A stretch of 62,630 nucleotides of DNA, counting the filler. It is 12 parts of 12 records of this genome, joined end to end, with 100 filler letters (N's around TTAATTAATTAA, not from the genome) between each part and the next. Parts side by side here need not be neighbours in the genome. Positions count along the whole stretch, not along the records: positions 8,002 to 12,155 come from SRR7504441_9989; 11 more parts are not named here. The stretch is one strand, 5' to 3'. Under the pieces are notes generated by a model. The model was not told the origin of the DNA, did no database searches, and worked only from the letters and a program-made list of their open reading frames with translations. Positions 4,122-52,200 of the stretch are shown piece after piece; positions within the stretch are counted from its first letter, which is position 1, and each line of letters opens with the position of its first letter. Position numbers and translations under genes: made by a program.

Positions 4122-4221
4122 NNNNNNNNNNNNNNNNNNNNNNNNNNNNNNNNNNNNNNNNNNNNTTAATTAATTAANNNNNNNNNNNNNNNNNNNNNNN
4201 NNNNNNNNNNNNNNNNNNNNN
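4122..4221. other. Artificial contig spacer (first of 11)
   Basis: 44 N + TTAATTAATTAA (stops in all six frames) + 44 N. Identical spacers at 7902-8001, 12156-12255, 17934-18033, 22293-22392, 27362-27461, 31349-31448, 35533-35632, 45544-45643, 53493-53592 and 56747-56846. Confidence 0.99.
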
Positions 4222-4224
4222 CCG

Positions 4225-7200
4225 ATGCGCCCGGACGTTGACTCCAAGATGGTGGCCTGGCTAAACAACACTGATGTACACGTGCAGCCTGATAGCGAGA
4301 AACCGCCGCCTGCTGTGAGCTCTGAGGAACTAGCTGGGCTGGTCTCAAAGCTCAAGCACGTGCTCGAACGGGAGGAAATGACCCAGACCCAGCTGGCCAA
4401 CGAGCTGCGGGTGTGGCCAGCCTCGATCTCGGTCTGGCTCAAGGGCAAGTCGACCAATGTACACCTGACGCACGACATTGCCACCTGGCTCAAGCACTGC
4501 GATGACCCAGTCGCCCGCAAAGCGTGCTTTGCGCGCAAGACAGGCAATGCGCAGCTTCGTAAGGCTCTGAAGCGGCCGGCCAAGACTGCGGTGGTCGGTG
4601 TGCGGTTCATGAACGCAAGTTGGAGGGAAGTGGCCCGTGCGTGTGAGGCGCTGAACAGTGATGCGACCAACATGGAGCGGCTCGAGACGATTCTTGGGCT
4701 AATTAGTCCACTCAAGGGCATGGAGCGCAAATTGGATGCGGTCAGCCAGCAGGATCTCGGCGAGATGTCCAAAGTTTTGCATAGCTTCCAGAGTAGCTTT
4801 GACGACACCACAGTGCTGGACGAGCAGCTGTCACTGAGGCTCGGGCTGCGGGGCACGTGGTCAATGGATGCAGCCTGCGCCTTGGCCATGGGTCGAATGC
4901 TGCTGCTTGGGGGGTCGCGGCTATACAGGGCAATGCTAGACAAGGAGCAGCCGAGCTACTGGCAGACCTTTGCCAGTGTGCTGGCAGGGCTGTCCAAAAT
5001 GCTCGATTATCCAGAGCAAGATATGAGCAGTCACGACACAGGCCAGCTCGTGATGTCTCGCGTGTTTGCCGCGACCACAGCATTGCGAGGCTTGTGCCAG
5101 GGTGCACAGGAATGCAAACGTGTGGCTAAGCAGGTGGTCAGCAGAGGAGTGCGCTTTGTGGACCATTGGCAGCGTATCCGCCTAGCAGAGACCCCGGCAG
5201 CGGATTCCACTCTGACTTTATTTCTCACCCTGCTGAACGAAAATAGCGACGGCAGTGCAGACAGTGTGGCCGCGACCAAGACGCTGATGCAGAAAGCAGG
5301 AGCTCTTCGCGTGCTACAAGAGCTGCAGAGTTCACTTGGGAAAATAGTGCCCAAGAAACGGTCGCAACTATACGACAGCTATACCAAGGTAATCAAACGC
5401 GCCACAGAGATCTGCGACATGCTCAGTATGACGTGCCTCGAAGAAGATTCGGAGGAAGCAGGAAACGATGAGTGGGATATGTGCAAAGAGGGCGACTCAA
5501 TGAGGCAGTGGTGCCAGGACGTCAGGGAATACATTGAGAAGGTGTCACGAGGTTTGAGCAGCGAAGATGGGAGTGAAAGCCTCGTGACTTCTGACCCAGA
5601 GGGTAAGCTGGCTGAGTGCTGTTCCCAGCTGAACAGCAGCATCAACGCTGTGATGGAGGCTCTGCCAGAAATGGGTGGCTCCTGCGATGACACACAGGAC
5701 GCCATGCTTGCGATGGGCTTCTTGCAGGTGAAAATAAAGCACACAGAATTGTACGCCGGCTCACTTGGTTGTTGCTTTAGGTGCATCGACAAATGCGCAA
5801 CTTTCGTGCCAGTCTAGCCGCACAAGCAGCTTCTCCAGTAGCTGCATTGGCCCAGGGCCTGGATATTGCCCAGCAGCTGATGTCGTTGAGGGACTCCTGT
5901 CGTACAATCAAGCAGCATCACCACGACAACATGAGCATCCTTTCACGGGACAAACAGCATGCGAATGCGGTACACCAACTTACTTTGGACAGGAAGGATG
6001 AGGACCAAGGCCGTGACAAGCGATCTGCAGATGCCAAAAGTCGACTGGAAAAGATGAAGATACGTGAGGCCGAGCTGGAGGAGGAGTTAGAAAAGCTGCG
6101 CGACGAGATTGAGACAGAGGAGACGATTATGGAAGATCTGATTCAGCTCAAGACTGCAACGCAGCAGGTGGCAGAGGAATCTGAGCAGGAGAGGAGCACA
6201 ATGGTCTCCCGACTGGAAAAAATGGAGCACACTGCTCAGATGGTCGGCCATCTATCGACATACATTGACATGACCAGCGAGCAAGTGGAAAACCAGTACC
6301 TAGAACAGACTCAGAAGGGCCTGCAGAAGTATCACGCGTGGGCACGCTCTGTGCTCGATTGCATGGGTGGGAAGAGGCCAGCAGGTTCCGGTCGTAGTAG
6401 TGTGTATAAGCGGCAATGCGTGCCAACAATGGATGAGAGAGATCAAGATAAGGTCAGGTGCCAAGCAGTCAAGCTGCTTGAGCAGCTCAAGATGTTCCGC
6501 AGCAGCTGTGCTCCGGCTGTGATGAATCAGCTGCAGGAGCAATTACACGAGCTTGAAGGTCTGTGCAGGCAGATTCGTGGCAACAAAAGCCTGTGCAAGG
6601 AGTACAAAGGCGCACAGACTGCAAATGCAATCTTTGCTGGCAGCTGTGTCGAAAAGCATGCCGTGCCGGCCTGGCATGTAGAGCAGCCACAACGGACTCA
6701 GACCATTGAGGCGCGGGTGAGGGAGATTGCTGAGCTGAAAGGCAACAAAATTGGACTTTGTGAGGCTAGCGTGGCGCCTGATGTTGCCCAATACCTGAGC
6801 CTAGTCCACCAGCCAGGGTACCTTCACTTCCTCATGGCACGAACCAAAGAGGCTCAGAAGAGTGAGCAAGAGTTCATGGAGCTGCACACCGATGGCAGCG
6901 ATTTCGACACATTCATCTCACCAGACACCTACGATGCGGCGCTAGCTTCAGCAAGTGTTGTGTGCAAAGGCATTGAGCAAGTGCTCAATGGGGAGACCCC
7001 GAACGTGTTCTGCTGCATTAGGCCACCCGGGCATCATGCAGGCCGCAGCGGTGGGGCTCTGGGCGAGTGTTCGCAGGGTGGGTAGCTTGATTGGCTGGTC
7101 TCTGATTGCGGGCAGGTTTCTGCCTGATCAACAATGTATGTGTCGGTGCAGCTTATGCTCGGGTGCATCATCAAGTGCAGCGGATCTGTATCATTGACAT

Positions 7201-7901: not shown

Positions 7902-8003
7902 NNNNNNNNNNNNNNNNNNNNNNNNNNNNNNNNNNNNNNNNNNNNTTAATTAATTAANNNNNNNNNNNNNNNNNNNNNNNNNNNNNNNNNNNNNNNNNNN
8001 NGG

Positions 8004-8746
8004 CCTGAGGCGAGGTTCAGAGACAAAAACACCGGCCGACGGCAGACGCTCCAGGAATACATGGCCGCCGAGCCCCCGGGCTATCTGTTTGAATTCCTGG
8101 GCCACCGCGGCGACGCAAAGGACCGGCACCAGGCGCTCCGACAGCGGGTGCGGCAAGGGCTCGGGCCGGCGCCCGAGTTCGGGGCGCCCGAGCGGGACCT
8201 GTTCGAGAGACCTAGGTACACCCAGCGCGACTTTGAGCTGGAGCAAAAGCCGGAGAACCATTGGCTGCTGGTCGGGCGAGAAGGGTGGGACCGCCGCCCC
8301 ACGGGTCTGACGGGCGTGGCAGGACCGGCAGCACCCTGCATGTGGACCCCAACGGCACGAGCGCCTGGAACACGCTGCTGTGCGGGCACAAGCTGTGGAC
8401 GCTCGTCCCACCCTGCCAGGCCACCGCAGGGCTATGGGACGCACCGGAGAACCTGGTCAGCCCGAGCATGTGCGGCAAGGCCCAGCTCGAAGTGGTTGCT
8501 CGGGCGCGGCTCGGGCCGGATGGGCCGTCGGAGAGCATCGAAGTGATCCAATTCGAGCAGAAGCCTGGCGAGACTGTGTTCCTGCCGAGGGGCTGGGCAC
8601 ATGCGGTGACTAATTTGGACACAACGATAGCGGTCACGGGAAATTACGCCCCGGCTGAGGACATCGAGCATGTGCTGGGTGTGATGGAGCTGTACGGAGG
8701 CGAGCCGTATAGAGATTACTGGCGCGTGCGTTTCAGTGAAACATGA
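8004..8746 (+). CDS. JmjC-domain oxygenase (JMJD6/JMJD4-like), 5' partial
   Basis: GSTLHVDPNGTSAWNTLLCGHKLW and QKPGETVFLPRGWAHAVTNLD give the HxD...H facial triad. Intron 8285-8322. Confidence 0.9.
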
Positions 8747-8803
8747 TACATTTTAATGTTGGTAATGTCAGTACGAGTAGATCTATTGTAAATGGTCACA
8801 CGT

Positions 8804-11800
8804 CTATAATTGTTCTGTGGCAATATGTAAGCTGCTAAGTTTAGGATCCGAAGCAATGCTCTCGACCCTGGGGAGGTTGGCTGTATTGTGGTTTGCATGG
8901 CCAAACCACGCACGGTCTTTGTGCGCTCGGGCGCACTCCTTGCTGAGCTTGACCATTAGTCTAGCCATAAAGATTGCTTTTCGCCACAGCCAAAGCCTTC
9001 GCGCGCGCAGGTATTGTTCCAGATTGGCTTCATACAACATCATAGAGTGCGCAGTAGGGTCGGTCCGTCCGGTAAGTTCCATTGCCGACGGCCGCCCAAT
9101 CACGTGCCCACCCGACTTCACAGCAACGTGGTTACCAGCGTGGTGGTAAATGGCCTGGCCACAGTAACAGCGTGGCGTGCAGCTCGCAAGGTCGCACGCC
9201 AGGAAGCCCGGCACTGAAGGCACCTAACCCATACCGATCAGTAAGAACCGCAGGCCGCCAGCTCACCGGGTCTCCTTCGTTAACTACTCTCCAGTAGTGC
9301 GGCAATAAGTGGTTCACCAGGCGAGAGAAGGCGAGGTTGCCGACCCGTGGCTGCCCGAATGTAATTAATTTGATGGGTGGTGCGTCCTCGAGCTCCGCTC
9401 GATCCAACAGGGCTAAGCTCAACCCGAAAGCGGCCAGCACAGCTAAAGCCCCGCCAAGCGAGTGCCCGCTGAGCATCACATGCGCCGACTCCGAGAGCAT
9501 CTGCATGAGCACAGGCATATCTGACAGCTTCGCACGCAGCGCATCGTTTATGACTAAGAAACCTCGGTGCACCAGCAGCTCGGTGGACCGGTCGATCGCT
9601 CCAGCTCGCTCCAGCTTCCGGGCAGCGTTTGGGTAGCGATCCCACAACGGAAAAACCTCCTGTGCTGAGTCGAGATCGGACATCGCATTTTTAAAGCTGT
9701 TGGTCCCTCGGTAGCACAGATGCATGCACTTGCGCCGGCTCCCCGAGTCGAACCTGGAAGCCACGGTTTGCTCGATCACACTGCACACCCGGCCGGTCAA
9801 GAGCCCGCATCCAGGCTCTTCACCCCAAGTGAGCATCGCTCTCGTCGTCGTTGACGAAGTGCTTGAGACCAGCCCCCTTGAGCCAGTTGACTTTGGTTGA
9901 CAGATCTCTCTGCTCAAGCAGTCGCATCTTGCCCTCGGCGTGCCACCGCTCTCGGAGCCTCAAACTGTTGGTTGCACCGTGTTCCATTAGTTGGTGGTAC
10001 TCATCGTCGCATATGAAGTCATTGTATACCTCGGAGCAGGCTCGCGCCGCCCCTCTGACCTCGACTGGATCGAATTGTATCTCACGAGCCTGATGCTCGG
10101 GCTCGTCGTCCGAGATCGCGCATAACTGCAAGTGCCGCCTCAGCAAAAAAGCACAGGCGTCTGACCTTGTAGCCAGCATCTGCCTCAGGATTTCTCTCCC
10201 TCCGGGCCCTGAGCCCAGACCGTATGGGAAAGTACTGTGAATACGAGCTGTAGTGTATGTCCTTGATCCTAAGAGCGGTGAACAAGAGCCAGCGCTTGTG
10301 TAGGCACCTGACAGTGGGCACCTCTTCGTGATGTCCAGGCAGGTTTCGGTTGATAATGCTCCTTGCACTTGGCAACGCTCCCTCCATGTCCGGGACAGGA
10401 ATCATCACGATGACAACTGCAGCAGCAGTAACAAACGTCATCGTGATGCACCAAGCAACGAAGGTCCTACCTGTCCATGAAAAGAACTGCAGCAGCAACG
10501 AAGGTCCTACCTGCAGGCTGGAATTAGCACGACTGTTACTGTGTATCAGATTGCCTGGTACACGACGTTGCCAGAGTTGATCCAGCTCATCACAGGGAAC
10601 CACTCGTCATTGGCAATAGTGCACCTAACCCAAACCAATCAACAAGCGCCACAGGCCGCCAGCTCACAAGTGAACGACTTCGATGATGATAAATTGAACA
10701 TAGAACCCTAGCACTGCTTTCCAGTAAAACCTTTGCAGGATCAACCAGTCGCGGTAGAAGATATATTCGGTGCTGTGAGCATTTAGCACAGAGTCTTGAT
10801 CCTCCAAGTTCATTCGCACCACGAGCGCATAACCAATGAGGACCCAGAGTATCATAACCAACCAGAGCTGCACAGGGCACAGTTTAATGGCTGGCTGGGC
10901 AGCCCGGTACCGGCCACTGGCCTGCCTCAAGCAGGGACGTGTCAGATCGGTACATGGCTGGGAAAAAGATATCGTCCCACATGCTATCGGCAAACATAAA
11001 CAAGATGGTGACCCGTAGGGCAAACAGCACTGCGGGCGCCCCAATACTGAACAGCGCAAGCTTGACGCTCTGCAGGAATGAAGTTGAATCTGCCCCACAC
11101 CGTCAGGTCCAGATCAACTCTGGCGAGGCACAGCTTCGTGGTATGTTGAGCATGTACGCAACGGATCCTAAGAAGGTGCCCGCGACTAAGATCACGAAGG
11201 TGGCGTAGATCTCCCAAGTACCTGCGAACGGAAGGACTATTGTAGAGACTCCATTCAAGATCGCCACAAACATCAGCACCGAGATGTGGGTATCGGCAGA
11301 TGTTTTCTTCCCAGTGGTGAGCCTTGAGAACTTCCTATCATGGTGCTGCCCGAGGCACATTCGGAAGAATACCATCAGTCCGACTTTGGTCACAAACAGC
11401 GTGAATGTGACAAATACTGCCGCCCCCAGCGTAGCGATGGTGGCCAACGCTACGTGTGAGTTCATCTGCGTACATTCCATCGTTAGCCCGGCCTTGCCAT
11501 TGATCGCGACTTGGTTGTACAAGGTGATCTTCAGCCTAAGCTCGTCGGCATCGTAGCGGCGCAGCACGTAAAATAAACGCCGACCGTAGAAATAGCCGAT
11601 TCCGGTATCAAACTCCCGGAGCGCTATGCCCTGGCGATACACCGTCGCCTCAACCTTGCGGAGCACTTTGGTCCCCGAGGGTGGCCCTTCTGAGCACTGC
11701 GACGAATGGCATGCGGTCACGCATCGCGCGTTGCCCCGGAGTGAAAAGGAGCCGCCGGTTATGCTGGTGCTGTCCGAGAACTCGACCCAGGTGGACTGGT

Positions 11801-12149
11801 ATTCGTCGCCCGGCGCGCCGCACATGTAGCTGCTGCTTCCAGGCACGCAGTACTTGTCTCCGGCCTGCAGTTGCACCAGGTTCTGATCGAGCCCACCGAC
11901 CTGACTGCTGTTAAAGCTGAACTGGCTGCTGGTGTTCAGGTCTATCAGCACAATCGCGGTGACCAGTCCCGCCGCGAGCAGCACGTTCGCTGCCACCATG
12001 GCCCGGGCCTCCCACTTAGTCATCCGCGTGAGCCACAGGCTGTGCGGTCTGTAGCCTCGGATGTAGTCCCCCAGCTTCGACCCCGGGTGCTCCTGCCGAA
12101 GCCGCCAGGCCTGCCGGAGCGTGCCCATCCACGAGCAGCACCCCGGCAT
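8804..12149 (-). CDS. Multi-pass membrane protein with C-terminal class 3 lipase domain
   Basis: YRGT, VHRGF, GHSLGGALA, TFGQPRVGN, EGDP|VPSVP and AHSM motifs, preceded by many TM segments. Introns include 11090-11131, 10868-10910, 10625-10667, about 10511-10554 and 9224-9266. Confidence 0.88.
9224..9266 (-). repeat. 43-nt intron, copy A of a duplicated intron
   Basis: GTGAGCTGGCGGCCTGCGGTTCTTACTGATCGGTATGGGTTAG. Removal restores the lipase DPVP motif. 36/43 identical to 10625-10667. Confidence 0.9.
10625..10667 (-). repeat. 43-nt intron, copy B of a duplicated intron
   Basis: GTGAGCTGGCGGCCTGTGGCGCTTGTTGATTGGTTTGGGTTAG. Removal gives the open frame VVHL|CTIANDEWFPV. Confidence 0.85.
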
Positions 12150-12256
12150 ATCTGANNNNNNNNNNNNNNNNNNNNNNNNNNNNNNNNNNNNNNNNNNNNT
12201 TAATTAATTAANNNNNNNNNNNNNNNNNNNNNNNNNNNNNNNNNNNNNNNNNNNNG

Positions 12257-15200
12257 CAGGGCGCGCTGGAGCTCGCCTCTGCGGCTGCAGAGGTGGCCTC
12301 CCGAGAGGCCGCTATAGCCGAGCGCGAGGCTCGGTTCGAGGCCCAGGCCCGGGAGCTGACCGACGAGGCGGAGGCCGGCCGGCATGCGATCGAGCGGGCT
12401 GAGGCTATTGACCGCGGGATCTCCGAGCGTGAGCGGGCGATCCAGGAAAGCAAGGAGCAGGTGGCAGGGCGGTGCGGACCGGCCGAGCTCGGGGGCAGGT
12501 CTCGCGGCAGCAGTCCAAGCTGATAGACAGGGAGGCCGAGCTGGAGGCGGCCCGGGAGCGTCTGGAGCTCAGGCACCAGGCGATGACTGCAGGTGAGGCA
12601 CAGCTGGCGGAGCGGATAGTCAAGGTGGCCGGGGCCGAGGCTATGCTCGCCCGGGCCCAGCAGCTGGAGGCCGAGGTAGCAGACAGAGAGCGCTCGCTCG
12701 CGCGCGACCGGGCCGTGCAAGCTGAGGCGGCGGCCACAGTGGGCCGGCGGGCGGAGGCGCTGTCTGCAGGCGAGGGCAAGCTGCGGGGTGAGCAGGATCA
12801 GCTGAGCCAGCTGGTGGGGCTGCAGCAGGCGCGCGAGGCCAAGCTGGTCGGGCTGGAGCAGCGGGCGGCCGGGGTGGCTCAGGCCGAGCAACGTGTGGCT
12901 CAGGCCGAGCAGCGGGTGAGTGTGGCCACGCAAGAGGTGCGCGAGCTCGACCAGCGTGTCAGGGAGAGGGCGGCCGCGCTCGAGGTGCACGAGGAACGGA
13001 TCAAGGTGGCCGAGCTGACCGCCGAGCGCGATCAGCAGCAGGCGATGCAGCAGCGCGAGCAGCAGGCGCTCGAGCGAGAGGCCGAGCTTACTGCGAGGGA
13101 GAGGCAGCTAGAGGTTTCGGACAGGCGGCTCGCGGAGCAGCAAGCCGAGCTCAGACAGCTGGACGGAGCCCGGAGGGAGGCCGGCGAGCGGGCGGCGGTG
13201 CTGGGCGAGTGGGAAGGCACGCTCCGGCAGAAGGAGGCTCAGCTCGATGCGCTCGAGGAGGCCTTCGTAAAGAGGGAGTCGGTGCTCCAGGGCACAGCCG
13301 AGCAGGTCAACGCCCAGATAGCGAGCATCAACCAGCAGGAGGCTGGGATCAAGGGCAAGGCGGCCGGCGCCGAGCAGGCGGCCGAGCAGGCGGCCCGGGC
13401 CGAGCGGGTGGCGGCCGAGCAGGCGGCGGTGCTCGAGGTGCAGAAGGCGGCGATGGAGCAGAGGGAACGGCAGCTGGCTGAGCAAGCGGGCAAGGCCAAG
13501 GAGGCGCAGGCGGGGCTCGAGGCCAGGGAGCGGGCGGTGGCGGCGGGCGAGCGGCGGGCGGAGCAGCTGGAGCAGCAGGCGGAGGCTGTGGCAAACGGGT
13601 TTGCAAAGCTCGAGGAGGCGAGGCATCAGCTCAGGCTCGATGGGGCCAGCATCCAGGAGGAGAGGCTGGCCGCTGACAGGGCTCTGCAGCAGGCCGACCA
13701 GAGAGCGGCTCAGCTAGAGCAGCAGCAGGCCGCGGTCAGGGAGGAGAAGGGTCGGCTGGAGCAGACTCAGGAGCAGCTCGGGCAGGCGGGTCAGCAGCAC
13801 AGGCACCTGCAGGCGGCCAACGAGACCAGCGCGGCCGAGCTGGCCCGGAGGGAGCTCCAGCTGGAGCAGGGCGAGGCCGCGCTGGAGCAGGCGGTGGAGG
13901 CGGCCGCTAAACTGCTCCGCCACAGAGGTGGGGCTGCGCACAAGACGGCGGTGGCAGTTGCTGAGGGGCTGCGCAGCTGGGCCGATCAACTGGACAAGTC
14001 GGAGCATGCCGGGATGCAGACAGCGGCGGTCTCCGCGGAGTTCGAGCTGTTGGATCGAGGACAGGAGGAGCTGAGGGCCCGGCTTGCCCGGCTGGAGTCA
14101 GGAGGGCTGGAGGCGGAGCTGGCTGTCTTAGTTCAGAGCAGCACCAAACATGCGGCCGCCGTGGTGCAGCTGCAGCAGGCGGCCGAGCAGCTGCAGGCGA
14201 TGGGATGGCAACGGGCCAAGCAGACCGACGGCAGCGAGGAGCGGCTGGCAGAGCTGAGGGACGAGGCCAACAAGCTGCGCAAGGCTCTCGCTCTCAACCA
14301 GGTCGCCACTGGTGAGCTGGAGACGACTGGAGCCCAGCAACAGGCGGCGCTATCTCAAGCTGAGGGCCGGCACGCGGAGGCCGAGCAGCGGGCCGACCGG
14401 CTGGCGGGCCAGCTGGAGGCGGCGGAGCAGCGGGTGCGCGTGTTGGAGCAGCAGGCAGCGGACATGAGCCGCGAGCTGACCGAGCAGACGGCCGGGCGGT
14501 CGGACGCTGGCAGGCGGGCGGACGAGGCCGAGCGGCTGCTGCAGGAGCAGATCTCGGCGCTGGGCCTGATAGTCAAGCCCAGGCCGGGAGCTGCTTCTGT
14601 GGCTGCCAGCTCGGGCGGTCCGGGCGAGCCGACCAGCGTGAGGGCGCAGCTGGAGCAACTGAGGTCAGAGCTCGAGCAGAGGGATTCTCAGATTGACCAG
14701 AGGGCGAGCGCGGTGGGGTTGCAGGCGGAGGCGATCGCGCTGCGTGAGCAGGAGCTGGCGGAGGCGGAAGCCCGGCTGGAGGCCGGAGAGAGCCAGCTGG
14801 AGCACGACAGACGGGCGGTGCAGGCGGAGGGCGAGCAATGGAGGGCGCAGGTGGGTTGCTTGAATAGGAAAGTTTGACGGGCTGCAGGTGGCCGATCTGA
14901 GGGCCAAGGAGGAAGCCTTCAAGGAGCGGTCGGACCGGCTGGCGGCGGTGCCCGCAGGCAGTGGGCTGCTCCAGGCCGAGCTCGCGCAGCTCAAGCAGCA
15001 GCTAGTCCAGGCTCAGGCCGAGCTGGCCGAGGAGCGGAGCGTGCACCAGGCGCTGCAGGCCGAGCGTGAACAGGTCGGGCGGATGATGGGAGACCTGATG
15101 GCCGAGTTCGAGCGGCTCCGCAACGGCGCGCTGGACGGCTCGTCGCTGCTGCACTCGTCCAAGTATTGCCAGAGCCACGAGCCGATCGGGGCGAGCCGTG

Positions 15201-18033: not shown

Positions 18034-21000
18034 GTCCTTGCTCCTCCTCAGCCAGCTCAGATATCTCTGCGATGATCTTTTCCAGCATGGCATTATCCTC
18101 AGGTGTGGGCTCCCTCTGCACTGCAGGGGCCTCCTGTTGTTTGCTCTTTTTCATCATACTTTCTTTGATCCCGGTGACCCGATTAGGATCTAACCGGCTC
18201 GGCACTATCCTCCGCTTCCTTTTGGCTGGCCTTCTCTCCCTACAAAAGTGTTCCTTGGCTTGGGCAAAGCCAACAAACTTGGAGGCCAAGTATTCAAGTA
18301 GCAGCAGCACTGTCTGCCCAGTGAACAGCTTGCCTTGGAAACTTCCTGTCACTCCTGCACGCTTGATCTCTTGCGCAGCCCGCTTCCGCCACTTTGCTGG
18401 GTCGGGCTCTGAGCTGCATGCTACACTGAAGCTCAAACCCGCCTGGTCGGGTTCTTGCCCAGGGTTCAGTAGCTTGCCTTCACCCCAGTGCCGCTGCATC
18501 GAGTCAAGCAGCAGCTCAAATATGGCCTCCTGGTCAGCTGCCAACTGCCTGAGGACGTCTTCTATCGCGCTGCTGCTCGCTGCACTCTGGCCTGGGACTG
18601 GTTCAGCCAGCGGGTTCTGGTAGTGTCGGGCCGCTGCGGCAAGATCCGGCATCACCTGCCGCAAGATCCCGATCTGCCCCCATAGCGACTTGACACTTCG
18701 TGGCCTGCGCGTGCGCCCAGGCTCCAATAGGCTGCGAGCGTCGGCCATCCGCTCGGCGACGCGCCGGAGAAGATTATCAGTCGTGATCAACTCATCCTTC
18801 TGGGTAGGTTTGGACGGAAACGCAACCAGGCCCTCCTGTTGCAACCCAAGCACCATTGCCTTCATTTCGACGTGCTGCCAGCCATTGCCCCTCTTCTTGA
18901 ACTGCTCTGCAAGTTCGCTGACCGTCTGCTCATGCACGGTTTTGTGCTCAGCTAGTGTCGCCATCTGCGCTTCAAGCGTGGCATTTCCCACCACACAGCC
19001 CCGCAGAGCGGTGATAATGTCCTGCATGCTCCACGCCGCCTGGCCATAGTCTTGCACTGCTTGCGAGAGCAGGGCGTTGTTCTGATTTAGGAAGTTCTTG
19101 AGTTTGCTCATGTGGTACAAATCTAGTCTGGCCTTGAAGTTGCTGGCGGAGCTTAGAGTCACAGTGTCAAGCTTTTCCGCCTGCACCCCTTAGCGCTCAG
19201 TAATTTGCCTGCAGCGCGTCACACCATTTCCTTCATCTTCTGCATGCAGTCGGCCTTGAACTTGGAGGCAAGGCTCTCAGCTATGGATATGCTCGCTGCT
19301 GCCAAGCATTCCTCGCGCTCATCCTCATTGGTGTTCTCACGTGCTTTCTGGACAGCTGCCTGGACCATCTTCTGGGCCTTTAATTCAAGCTCCTGCGACA
19401 GCTTTGCCTTTGGACAGAGCAAAGTTATGTCAAACAGGCTGCGTGCTTCAGTCATCACACTGGTGGCAAACATTTTTCGCTCAAACTCGCGCAGCGCTTC
19501 AAACCACACCATCTGCTGTTCACCATTTCCGATCTCGCCAGCTGACCAGTGATCTTTCCCTACTGCCTCCAACTTATCTCTGAAGTCCTGAAGAGCCCCG
19601 TTCTCTGCGAAAAGGTTCTGAAGCACTGCCTCAAATGCAGTCACAGTCCCCTTGAGCACTGCACCAACCATTACCTCGACCAACTCTATGCCCTTGTACC
19701 TGCCGCCCAATTCAGCTGCAGCCTATTGGGTCGGCTACCTTGCTGGCATCACTTTGACGCCTTTGGAAAGCCGAAACGCGCAAAACCCAGCAAGAATAGC
19801 CTTTTTGGAATGATTCAGTTCGACTGTGAGCTCGGCCAGCGCTTGCTTGAACCTATCAGCGCTACAACAGTCGCGCAGTTGGTCCACCTGACCTCAGGAT
19901 AGGCACATCAAACCAATCGGCACCGACCTTGGCCTCGAAATTCAGCTCACAGATCAGATTGAAACTCTCCTTCCAGCCGCGTACGAGCGCTCGGAAACCG
20001 CGCTCGTCGCGTGGCAGCGCCCTTGCAAGCTCCTGCATGCTCTCACATACCTGCAGTACATATGGCTGTCAGCCTGGCATGGCAGAAAGCTAGCTCACTT
20101 GCGCCAGCTTCTGCTCATTGCTGATTTGAGCTAGTTGCAGAAGCTGACGCACCTGTCACCTGCGTCACACTGCACCAAGCGGGCGCAATGCCTGGCCTAA
20201 AAAAGGCTGGAATATGTTGTTGATTACGTGTTGGCCAGTGTCAGCCAGCACTTGCGTGGTTGCCTGGCCCAGCATCTGTTGGATGCCCAGCTCCAGTCGG
20301 CCACAGTTGGATCGGTTCTGCTCAAGCCCCTTCTTTGACTCCCAGTATGGATACACCGGCATGACAATCACCGTCCCCATGGGCTCATCAGCCAGCTCCT
20401 CAGTGCCAATCTCCTCTGGCAGCTGCCACCCCTGCCTGGCAGCCGCCATGTAGGGTTTGACTGTCGTTTCTGCCATCTTGTTCCGCTCCTGCCGCGCTCT
20501 CAGCACCCTGCAAGCCCTTCCTGGTCACTTGGATGTCTTGGACGTTGCACAGCTCAGCAGCAGCCTTGACGAGCACACTTTGCACCTCGCCCAGCTTCTT
20601 GCTGCATAAGCTGGCCTCCTTCTCGGCCCATTCCTCACGGTCGGCGTTGAACCTCTCCCAGTTGGGGTAATACTCCTTGTCAGCTGGCACCACTGCAATG
20701 AGCCTATGTAGCGGCTGGCCACCCAGCAGCCTAGCCAGGAAGCTCGAGCGCGAGAGCACTTGCTTGACCCCCGCTGAGAGCGCTTCAGGTTTGAGCACCA
20801 GCAGCACCACTGTGGCCTCATCCATCGCGCGCTTCAGGTACGCCATTCTCAGCGTGTCCATGTCGGCGCATCCAGGAGCGTCAATGAACCGGCCGCCCTT
20901 AAGCACAGCACAGGGCACTTGGACTGTGACCTGTCGCACGGCTCAGCACTGGACCGGCCTGAGCAACCTTTTCTATCAGGCCCCAGCAGGCTGAGGCTGC

Positions 21001-41507: not shown

Positions 41508-42444
41508 ATGCACGGGCGGGCCTCCGACCCGGGCCGTCGGCCGTCGGTACCGGGCCGGGCGGCGAGTCCGATGGCCGGTCGGATCGAGATGCTCGAGAGC
41601 GCCTTGCAGCGGGTGCAGGGCGAGGCCTTGGCCCAGCTGCGCAGGAGCGCGGCCGACGAGGAGCGACACAGCGCCCAGACCGGGCTGCTCGAGCAAGCGG
41701 TGGAGCAGCTGACCGGCGAGCGGGACCAAGCTCGGCAGCAGCTGGCGGAGGTCACAAAGCAGCTCGCCCGATGCAAGACCGCCCTCCGCGGTGCGCCGAC
41801 CACTGGGCGGCCGGCACCGGGGGGCAGAGACCACCGCCGAGCTCACCCAGACCCAAATGGAGCTGATGGGCAAAGAGGAAAGGCTGAAAAAGGCGCCCGG
41901 CCGCACAACCAGCCCGAGCCCCGCCAGGTGGCCATGCTCGAGTGCGACCTGATCACCGGCGAGCTCCACAACCCGCCGGCCCTCCCAGAAGGCCCGAGCC
42001 CGCGCCGGACCGCCCCAGGCGACTCGTGCGGCACCCCCAGCGCGGCCGTGGGCAAACGGATGCCGGCCGGGCTGCTGTCGGTGCTTGTGGAGTACTTTGA
42101 GCGCTGTGAGCACTCGGTCTGGCCCGGGCTGAGCCGGTTGTGCAGACTCGACCAACCTGCAGAGCACTGGCTACATTGAGTCCGGCCAGCTCCACCAGCT
42201 GGTGCTCGGGATATGCTTCGAGCTGCAGGTGTCGGCGCTGCCTGAAGACATCCGAGCCCGAGTTGAGGCCAACCCAAGCAGAGAGCACCTCACTTTCAGG
42301 GTGTTTTGTGACTGGGCATTCGATGCATTCCCCGAGTTGTGCAACTTTCGCGCCTTCACCAGCGAACTCAAAGCAGTCCGGTTCGGGACTGAGGCGTCGC
42401 TAGAGGTTTGCAATTCGTTAGGCGGGAAGACACCAACTTTATGA
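41508..42444 (+). CDS. Hypothetical coiled-coil protein
   Basis: N-terminal heptads (IEMLESALQRVQ...) and a spliced C-terminal segment ending at 42444. The start may be the ATG at 41570. Confidence 0.6.
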
Positions 42445-49299: not shown

Positions 49300-52200
49300 C
49301 TAGTAACTTAGATATTGCAAGATTTCTTCCAAATCTTGCTCGGAGCATAGCGCCTTAGCCATGACCTCTCTTTTAGATGAGCCCTCCAGGTGAACCAGCG
49401 AGGATATCAAATCGCCATCAATCATATCACGCCCGGGGCCAGCAGACTGTGCACTCCAGAATTGCTGATGCGACGCAGCTCCGAGAGGCTCAAAACTGGG
49501 GGCCTGTGCTAGCTGCAGCTGGATCTGAGCGAGTTTCTGGTACAGTCGGGCTGGGATCGCTACGACTTGCCCAACCGCACCGGAGGCGGTGACCAACACA
49601 GCACTCTTCTGCCCAGCGTGTTTGGTATGACACAAATCAGCTCCGCCTATTGTGCCCTCGCAAAAGCAAGTGACGCGATGCCCACAGTGGCACGCACACA
49701 CAAGCTCGATGGCCGCACCGCTGAGCGTCGATATTCCAACCAGGCCCTGGTGATCTGCCCAGACCAGTGAGCCGTGGCTTAGGTACTGCATGCTCGTGAG
49801 CACTAGATTGCGCGAGTCTCGAGCCACCACAACGAGTAATTTATCTTCCGGACGATATTCGTACACTGTCACTGAACGAAATGTTTCGGCAACAGCAAAG
49901 CGATTTGTGCCCGGTTCCACTGATGCAGTGAGTGCACAGCCATGGTTCGGGGTTGCTAATTCGGCTAGCTGGCGTAGCTCGCCATCCTCAATCCCGAAGA
50001 TCGTAACATTCTGATTCACCACCGCCCCCAAGACTCCACAGTCGAGCCATCCGAGTGCGTAGCAGCCCGCCTTTGGGAGCTCGACCGACGCCTTGAGCTC
50101 GAGCCTCCAGGTGTCTGCACCGTCCAGCGGCCCGAGCTGCGCCATCTCAAACACCGACACATAGCAGCACTGCGATCCGGTCTCCAGTCCATCAGACGGC
50201 AGGACAACGGATGCGATCCCGATCCTGCCGGATTCTGAGGCGGACAGCGCGGTGAGCTGATGGCCTGGCTCGAGCGCCAGCTCGCCGCACTGCGCGAGCG
50301 AGTCAAGCTGCAGGATGCGCAGCTTAGAGCCGACGGTCTGCGAATCTTGGGTCACTAGCAGCAGCTTGGCGGCCTGGGCGCGCTTCCAGTGCAGCAGATG
50401 CTTGGGCGTCTCGCCCAGCTGGACAGACTGCCAGCGGATTGCGAGCGTGTGGTCAATTGTGCCGCCGCGGAGCATTCCATCGCTGTGCAAGTAAGCCAAA
50501 ACTTGCTCCTGGTCCGAGTTTGTTCCAACCAGAACCACACTCAGCGCCCCGTCAAGTCCCTCCAACCGGCAACAGCTCATCCCGCCGGCACCTACCGTCA
50601 CTATTGCAGAGCGATCGCTGTGCGCAACCCAACGCAGCCCAGAGCCTTGGTCACTAGCGCCAAGATCACACAGTCTGACCTCTCGGTCGCCCACCTTGGC
50701 CAAGGCCACCTGCTCGAGCGAGTGGGTCGATTGGCGGTAATTGAGCAGAACGACCGACCCCTCGGCCAGACCGGCCACCAGCTGGAGCGAGTTGGCCAGC
50801 CTGAGCGACCTCGCCGGGGCCGTCTGCGCCAGCCTCAAGCTAGCGAGCAGCTCCCACTGCTCCGAAACCGCATAAAGCTGCACTTCCGGCGGGTCGTTGC
50901 CCTGGCTCCACACCTGTTGCGCAACCGTCAGATCCGGCCAGCAAGCTATGCACCCCGAGCGCGGCCGAGTCGCTGGACGAGGCGAGTGCTGAGATCGCCA
51001 GCCCGGCTTGCAGCTTTAGGCTGCTCCGGCAGGCCACCTTGCCCGGCGCCAGCTGCAGAGCCCAGACCGTGCAGGAGGCCGCCACCAGCAGCACGGGGGC
51101 GGACCACTCGGCCGTCAGCAGCGGTTCCGGGCTGGGCCACTGCCCGCTGAGCCGCCCGCCGAGCACAAGCCGCACGCTATCGGGCAGCACTTGCACGTAG
51201 CCCGACTGGCCGGCCAGCTGCACCTCAGCCGCAGCCACTGTCCAGCCGCCGGTGTGCAGCCCGGGCAAGTCGCCCTCGGAGGCGGCACCGTCTGCGGTGA
51301 GTCGGAGCTGCTGAGTGCGGGCCGCTGTCCGGTGAGTCATCACGAGCGTGTCGGCCAGCCAGATCAGCTGCGGCCGCCCAAGCTGCTCCACCTCCAGCTC
51401 AAAGCTGATCAACAGCTCAGCCGCCATCACTCCGCGCCGGAGCGAGCCCTGCCTGCCGTGCCCGCAGCAGCAGACCAGTTGCTGCCCGCCGTCCGCGAAG
51501 CAGTCGACCAGCGCCGCCTGGTGGATCGGGGCCACGTTCATGACAAACGCAGGATCAAGAACCTCCAGCTCGGCCGGCCGCACCTCCAGTCGGGCCAGCA
51601 CCGAGTGCCCGGAGGCGCAGCCCACCAGCAGCATCCGTTGGCATAGCGGCACCAGCTGGCGCGGCTCGCCCAAGGTGGGCCCGACTGCTCTCACCAGCTC
51701 GATCCGGTCGAGGCTCACCGACCCGATCAGCGCCTGCCCGGACATCGTGAGCAGCACGCACTGGACCGGCCCGCCCGGCGCCCGCTCGAGCGCGCAGGCC
51801 CGGACCACTCGCTCCGGGCAGCTGATCTGGGCGCGGCGGCCATCGGCATCGTACAGTGCTAGCAGTTGGTCGGACACACAGAGCACAGACGAGCCGGTCG
51901 GGCCTGGGAGCAGCTGCGAGCTGGAGCGGTGCGCCTGCCTGACCCACCAGGGGCCCGGCTCTATCGCGCCGGAGCCAAACTCGAACAGCACGCACTGGAG
52001 GTGGACCAGCCCAGGCTCAGAGGCGTCCTCGTACAGCACAGCCACATGGCTCTCGCCGGTCCAAAGCAAGTCGGCCGCGCTGGCCGGGGCGGACACGAAC
52101 AGCATGTCCCGCACCAGGCAGTCCGAGCCCTGCCGGCCGCACCCGAACGGCCAGAGCATCAGCTGCTGCTCCACCTCGATCTTGCCGGCCGGGCCCCGCC

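Follow-up and report, generated by a model that had tools for sequence, protein, structure and literature searches.

Spliceosomal introns that are nearly identical to each other but occupy different positions of one gene have been described in fungi as same-gene duplications (SGDs). Of 82 such introns in 24 fungi, half showed no duplicated exons, and the explanation given was either transposition inside a single transcript or transfer from one paralogue to another (PMC3609843). Three same-gene cases are on record for C. elegans, and near-identical introns for Oikopleura dioica (PMC3609843, PMC4122922). Here, we analyze a pair of 43-nt introns, A and B, found in a lipase gene on a 4,154-bp contig within a stretch of 62,630 bases of metagenome-assembled DNA (hereafter, the window). 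A and B are a real intron duplication at unrelated sites of one gene and a new instance of a known, rare kind. The initial annotation of the window had put the pair forward as a candidate for an undescribed system; the duplication of near-identical introns within a gene without exon duplication is the described SGD class (PMC3609843), and this part of the claim is not supported.

As described for the fungal SGDs (PMC3609843), A and B are near-identical introns of regular size at different positions of one gene, few in number, and with predicted folds that are no more stable than those of other introns. The likeness of A and B is confined to one gene within the 62.6-kb window, and their flanking exons, as in half of the fungal cases, are not duplicated. 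A and B differ from the SGD cases in their host, an uncultured marine protist, in the 40–44-nt size of its introns, and in being only 84% alike, the mark of an old event; moreover, their homology includes four exonic bases and a repeat of the triplet GTG.

Two further classes of repeated introns invite comparison. Transposon-type introners, such as those of Micromonas pusilla, form families of four to thousands of copies located in unrelated genes and usually bear a terminal inverted repeat (TIR) (PMC3879977, PMC11282704, PMC9860276). Fungal introner-like elements (ILEs), as reported in the fungal study, are longer than regular introns, have a stable predicted structure, and are present in hundreds of copies (PMC3609843).

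The window consists of 12 contigs, 3.2–9.9 kb each, joined by eleven artificial 100-nt linkers (runs of N around TTAATTAATTAA, a six-frame stop spacer, at 4122–4221, 7902–8001, 12156–12255, and eight more places). A feature that crosses a linker would be an artifact, and the contigs may be neither neighbors nor even from one organism. Nine sequencing runs have words in common with the contig bearing the lipase gene, each a small share (0.05–0.12); all of them are metagenomes described as marine, seawater, or aquatic. The Pfam matches in the window are eukaryotic in kind (histone deacetylase, CPSF/DDB1 propellers, F-box/LRR, ankyrin, WD40). For these two reasons, the window was treated as coming from a metagenome-assembled marine eukaryote.

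Likeness and splicing of the two introns

Aligned without gaps, A and B are identical at 36 of 43 positions. Both start with GTGAGC and end with TTAG; the first 16 and the last 8 nucleotides are the same, and the differences are at positions 17, 20, 21, 25, 26, 31, and 35, five of the seven being transitions. Reading of the strand and a repeat search thus bear out what the initial annotation had reported about the pair, i.e., its equal length, ungapped identity, common first 16 nt, and shared end. In the repeat search, the likeness continues through the exonic GTGC following each intron, resulting in a 47-nt repeat at 85.1% identity, while upstream of the introns it ends at once. The equal length by itself is not special, as all seven introns inferred in this gene measure 40–44 nt.

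A trivial explanation, that the likeness comes from shared splice signals, from chance, or from an assembly artifact, or that A is not a separate intron, seems very improbable. In its favor, all introns here are 40–44 nt long, have GTG-type starts, and carry a branch point 8–16 nt from the 3' end, and thus the length and approximately 13 signal positions are shared for free. However, with the 13 positions that splice signals could fix excluded, A and B still agree at 23/29. In a control set of 365 GT..AG 43-mers of the window, forming 66,430 pairs, the best pair after A–B has 27/43 identities, so that an identity of 84%, which the initial annotation had wished to see compared with random intron pairs, is not common among them. 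Assembler duplication does not give 84% identity, and B together with its flanks is present in an independent run: a DNA contig of run X1 (9039–9305) carries B in place, with 3 of 267 letters different, none of them listed within the intron.

Other comparisons lead to the same result. In a self-blastn of the whole window, A–B ranks first of 31 non-self matches (E = 2.9e-7). A profile built from A and B finds only these two introns in the window (E = 2.6e-12 and 9.3e-11), the next match having E = 5.4. Of the 15 pairs formed by six introns of the lipase gene, only A–B exceeds shuffled sequences (local score 34, reached by 0/300 shuffles), whereas the scores of the other 14 pairs were reached by 31–298 of 300 shuffles and their identities number 22–28 even with gaps; the five other introns of the gene have 22–27 identities with A or B, again with gaps allowed. 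No match to the A/B profile was seen among the other plausible introns of the window (37–44 nt). Since the other intron pairs are at the shuffle level and the other introns do not match the profile, the high identity is not a property of the introns of this organism. A and B are homologous, and their likeness is far above chance.

All seven differences fall within a span of 19 nt (positions 17–35; P = 0.016, or 0.048 with the canonical signals held fixed), although this test of clustering is post hoc and modest. The two introns differ by 16%, compared with about 1% between the metagenome-assembled genome (MAG) and the independent population contig from X1. From this difference we infer that the duplication is old; both copies have kept the 5' splice site, the core of the branch point, and the 3' splice site.

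Splicing of B was assessed by removing the intron with a script and comparing the product with the 120 Lipase_3 homologues listed of 226. The spliced product outscores the read-through in 111 of these 120. Alignments cross the B junction in 48/120 homologues, the best of them extending 60–100 residues beyond it (e.g., 98.2 vs. 77.8 bits). Judged from these alignments, B is a real intron, since its removal restores the match to Lipase_3.

For A, the evidence is of another kind. The upstream frame stops at a TGA formed by the first bases of A, and the removal of six introns of 40–44 nt (A, B, and the four others marked in Table 1) results in a single open frame, 680 codons long, between 11102 and the stop at 8804. 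The support for A comes from the reading frame within this model, as no homologue covers that part of the protein. We therefore consider A to be spliced as an intron of its own, at the strength that a reading frame allows. The claim that both segments are introns thus holds for B by homology and for A by reading frame only. Favoring the trivial explanation, A is without RNA or homology support, and the exon after it has 63 nt, a multiple of three, so that a single 150-nt intron at 10518–10667, skipping this exon, would equally keep the frame. The lone RNA contig (8854–9208) stops 16 nt short of B; reads give no cover over 10365–10920, including A, and no joints. Features of U2-type introns are present in both A and B, namely, the GTGAGC start, a YTGAT motif with its A 14 nt from the end, and the terminal TAG.

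Flanks, borders, and the search for further copies

The initial annotation had placed A and B in different phases and in non-homologous exons, with segmental duplication failing to explain them, and both statements agree with our data. A is in phase 2 and B in phase 0. In register, the flanks are identical at 23/100 positions upstream and 32/100 downstream; in local alignments of the 300-nt flanks, 101/200 and 98/200 shuffles score at least as high, and for the encoded proteins (±100 amino acids around the junctions) 205/300 shuffles do so. Because the flanks are at the shuffle level both in DNA and in protein, segmental duplication of exons is excluded for A and B.

The borders show a pattern of their own. 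Each intron starts with GTG, and the exon following it again starts with GTG(C), an arrangement observed in 0/6 other introns on the contig; the exonic GTGC after both introns had been noted initially, and it stands. The likeness of A and B spans the region from the first position of the intron to 4 nt beyond its 3' border. As GTG is the same triplet at both sites and n = 2, a target-site duplication (TSD) is indistinguishable here from a sequence belonging to the element or from a site preference. As also noted initially, no TIR is visible: the best inverted matches of 10-mers cover 6/10 positions in A and 5/10 in B, which does not exceed the level of shuffled sequences. The predicted RNA folds of A and B are likewise no better than those of shuffles (z = +0.36 and −0.47), and a conserved RNA structure was rejected, with z-scores from +1.24 to −0.47.

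The other approximately 58 kb, that is, the other 11 contigs, yielded no third copy by mismatch search, blastn, or profile. The 16-nt intron start with at most three mismatches has three matches in the window, A, B, and a site at 50252. The latter (two mismatches) was rejected as a copy and ascribed to chance, as it falls within a coding region on the opposite strand and the likeness extends no further. Sequence collections were scanned with a pattern consisting of the first 14 and the last 7 intron bases with a free gap between them, and then with a looser pattern. The strict pattern yielded 0 matches in viral contigs and 0 in metagenome contigs, and the looser one, two in metagenome contigs and two in contigs of prokaryote genomes. 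These four were also dismissed as chance matches, since nothing is alike beyond the fixed letters and two of them are in bacterial MAGs. The scanned collections probably lack the organism, because even the source locus was not found in them, and negatives from them weigh little. Four read runs were compared at 85% likeness, and none of their contigs matched A or B by itself; given that A and B are only 84–85% alike, typical members of a family would be below this limit, and the comparison is no evidence on copy number.

Probable copying within the gene and its alternatives

We think it somewhat probable that one of the introns is a copy of the other, or that both descend from a single source, within the gene and without exon duplication, i.e., that this is a non-segmental same-gene intron duplication. 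A and B share one gene and one orientation and are separated by 1.4 kb, which we count in favor of same-gene copying. The copying may have proceeded by one of two routes of similar weight, through RNA or through DNA, with a slight lean toward DNA. The initial annotation had suggested copying by reverse splicing within the same transcript: copying in the same gene is indeed our best reading, while reverse splicing is only one of the two routes and the DNA route is slightly favored.

In the RNA route, the excised intron would be reverse-spliced into a second site of the same transcript, and reverse transcription followed by recombination into the gene would fix the new copy; under this route, B would be the likelier new copy, as it is the 3'-most intron. 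This route accounts for the exact intron unit but not for GTG...GTG(C), which would then be due to coincidence or to a site preference. In the DNA route, copying would be by templated repair, with a broken end finishing in GTG that primes on the GTG at the start of the donor intron; about 43 nt would be copied and the end rejoined at the following GTG(C). Such a scheme needs selection that keeps only an insertion that happens to be spliceable. The lean toward DNA comes from the fact that this route accounts directly for the GTG...GTG(C) repeat around both copies. Overall, the border features suggest a DNA-level or TSD-type mechanism at least as much as reverse splicing.

Double-strand-break repair is a way of intron gain that leaves short direct repeats at the borders, as in Daphnia, and the filler is usually of unknown origin. 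Daphnia intron gains are on record (PMC3609843). A and B resemble such gains in that a short direct repeat (GTG) brackets a small precise insertion, and they differ in their donor, a second intron of the gene that would lie at a distance of 1.4 kb.

The lipase gene contains other short repeats. An exact 20-nt direct repeat, at 10454–10473 and 10494–10513 on the minus strand, 40 nt apart, resembles a 5' splice site (CAG/GTAGGA...) and is read in two different frames in the gene model. Together with a second repeat (10406–10427 and 10476–10497), it gives rise to a 24-nt GT..AG unit at 10487–10510, which resembles a 54-nt GT..AG unit at 10417–10470 less 30 internal bases. The lengths of both units are multiples of three, so the frame cannot tell exon from intron. 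In this region, intron-like sequence of the lipase gene may have been copied locally a second time, and the 20-nt repeat is compatible with local copying at the DNA level.

Several points weigh against copying confined to the gene. The reading frame is the one line of evidence for the splicing of A. The count of two copies comes from about 58 kb of a metagenomic bin, whose coherence was deduced from similar intron sizes. The lipase gene holds 7 of the approximately 15–30 introns inferred in the window, so the same-gene argument is modest; by a rough estimate from a noisy census, two members of a dispersed family would share this gene by chance in about 5–20% of cases. Here, the intron census by codon-score and open reading frame (ORF)-joining scripts was used only for the rough total of 15–30. 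The identical ends of 16 and 8 nt fit, to a modest degree, an element whose termini have a function better than they fit a single copying event, and the GTG that opens the intron and recurs directly behind it resembles a 3-nt TSD.

These points lead to the principal alternative, possible but the less probable one, namely, that a dispersed mobile intron of very small size, an introner, inserted twice, giving A and B. In its details, which we regard as equally tentative, an element of approximately 40 nt would insert at GTG and duplicate it as a 3-nt TSD; the upstream GTG and the AGC of the element would form the GTGAGC 5' splice site, and the element would bring its own branch point and 3' AG. 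The GTG at the start and GTG(C) after the intron are present in both copies and in none of the other six introns of the contig, and the ends (16 and 8 nt) are identical, all differences being central. The likeness ends within 4 nt of the exon boundary, as demanded by the published introner filter, which places both borders within 5 exonic or 10 intronic bases (PMC9860276). Further, introners are reported to be commoner in aquatic species (17.0% vs. 2.6%; PMC9860276), and one splice site of the Micromonas pusilla introners comes from a 3-nt TSD (PMC11282704). The likeness to transposon-type introners of this type extends to similar introns at non-homologous sites in a marine protist, to a 3-nt direct repeat at the border that could supply one splice site, and to likeness that ends at the borders (PMC3879977, PMC11282704, PMC9860276).

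On the other hand, one gene contains the only two copies seen, the other 11 contigs having none, and both have the same length as the neighboring introns; there is no TIR and no stable fold, and with n = 2 and the same triplet a TSD is not separable from a site preference. None was found in the viral, metagenome, and prokaryote-genome collections, which weighs little, the organism being seemingly absent there. The elements of Micromonas are well over 100 nt long. To our knowledge, a size of about 40 nt is unprecedented, smaller than in any transposon-type introner described.

The introner screen of Gozashti et al. (2022) demanded at least four similar introns, a blast E ≤ 1e-5, and dissimilar host proteins (PMC9860276), and here two copies in one gene are seen. 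The introner family put forward in the initial annotation is thus far not supported by the sequences searched, although these searches do not refute it. A pair like A and B would not be reported by the published screen, and, according to its description, the pipeline would miss 43-nt pairs from the same gene (PMC9860276), which to some extent favors the introner explanation. In its strongest form, which we consider doubtful, the pair would represent the smallest introner, a TIR-less element of about 40 nt inserting at GTG with a 3-nt duplication and building the GTGAG 5' site from target and element. It is similarly doubtful that such an element carries the branch point and the 3' AG and is sized for a spliceosome handling only introns of 40–44 nt, or that the conserved ends of 16 and 8 nt are signals for its mobilization.

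Two other classes fit less well. Fungal ILEs share with A and B the absence of a TSD or TIR requirement, and spread by reverse splicing was proposed for them (PMC3609843), but A and B lack their features: they are 43 nt long, compared with 40–44 nt in their neighbors, the folds are at the shuffle level, and there are two copies. The assignment of A and B to the BOC1-type short introns of Mamiellophyceae was rejected, as those are described as AT-rich (<43% GC) singletons without a conserved branch point (PMC3879977).

Gene context and implications

The features of the contig are summarized in Table 1. The Pfam domain Lipase_3 is matched (E = 3.1e-21) on the exon 9267–9959, and the match ends exactly at the exon end, directly before B, which is the last intron of the gene and lies within the Lipase_3 domain. 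The lipase search yielded 226 proteins at E ≤ 0.001, the best identity being 34% among the matches listed. At least seven introns are inferred in the gene (42, 43, 43, 44, 40, 43, and 43 nt), with branch-point-like motifs 8–16 nt from the 3' end. An upstream 341-codon ORF of a membrane protein is joined to the 680-codon frame through the 42-nt intron. Between this ORF and the remainder of the gene there is a lone in-frame TGA (11103–11105, minus strand), which is plausibly explained by the same intron. In an independent DNA contig of run X1 (11001–11291), the TGA at 11103–11105 is kept, and a difference is seen at 11102.

Table 1. Coordinates of the lipase contig, the lipase gene, its introns, and the bases bordering introns A and B
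Feature	Coordinates	Strand	Description
Contig bearing the lipase gene and the intron pair	8002..12155		4,154 bp; artificial 100-nt linkers at the borders
Host gene	8804..12155	minus	Multi-pass membrane N-terminal part and class-3 lipase domain; 5' end cut at the contig edge; stop at 8804–8806
Intron A	10625..10667	minus	43 nt, GT..AG, phase 2; branch-point-like TTGAT, its A 14 nt from the 3' end; removed for the 680-codon frame
Intron B	9224..9266	minus	43 nt, GT..AG, phase 0; branch-point-like CTGAT, its A 14 nt from the 3' end; removed for the 680-codon frame
Inferred intron	11090..11131	minus	42 nt, GT..AG with CTGAC, unrelated to A and B; removes the lone in-frame TGA
Inferred intron	10868..10910	minus	43 nt, unrelated to A and B; removed for the 680-codon frame
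Inferred intron	10518..10561	minus	44 nt, unrelated to A and B; removed for the 680-codon frame
Inferred intron	10126..10165	minus	40 nt, unrelated to A and B; removed for the 680-codon frame
Inferred intron	9781..9823	minus	43 nt, unrelated to A and B; removed for the 680-codon frame
GTGC, first four exonic bases after intron A	10621..10624	minus	GTG repeats the first three bases of the intron
GTGC, first four exonic bases after intron B	9220..9223	minus	Identical to the bases after A

The convergent neighbor gene (8002–8746, plus strand) encodes a JmjC/cupin-8 protein, and its stop is 58 nt from that of the lipase gene. The protein has four matches, the best being 47% identical and the one named match, from Arcella, 40%. 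The gene contains a 38-nt intron at 8285–8322, just ahead of the region of the conserved HxD motif. Candidate introns of 36–50 nt were also seen on other contigs (e.g., 7078–7115, 14851–14887, 19181–19224, and 42106–42145), and tiny introns of uniform size, in GC-rich DNA, seem to be the rule in this organism.

Three proteins (the lipase exon, a CPSF/DDB1-like ORF, and the JmjC exon) were searched against 5.8 billion clustered proteins, and no relative above 47% identity was found among them; the proteins of the window itself are absent from that set. The CPSF-like ORF had no protein match at E ≤ 1e-10, and an Rfam search of the whole window gave no match. The atlas assignment goes no deeper than Eukaryota. 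The source lineage appears to be very poorly sampled.

Only a few clean cases name the donor of a newly gained spliceosomal intron, and how such gains come about is still under debate. Here, donor and copy lie within 1.4 kb of each other, in a single gene of an unsampled marine lineage whose introns are very short, and the GTG...GTG(C) repeat at the borders helps to discriminate between reverse splicing, templated DNA repair, and transposon-like insertion. If the explanation by a miniature introner is true, then screens that use blast at E ≤ 1e-5 and remove pairs from the same protein would miss such families systematically. If the genome holds no more copies, the pair is one more example of a known rare event; if it does hold more, they would extend introners to a size of about 40 nt and show that current screens overlook them.

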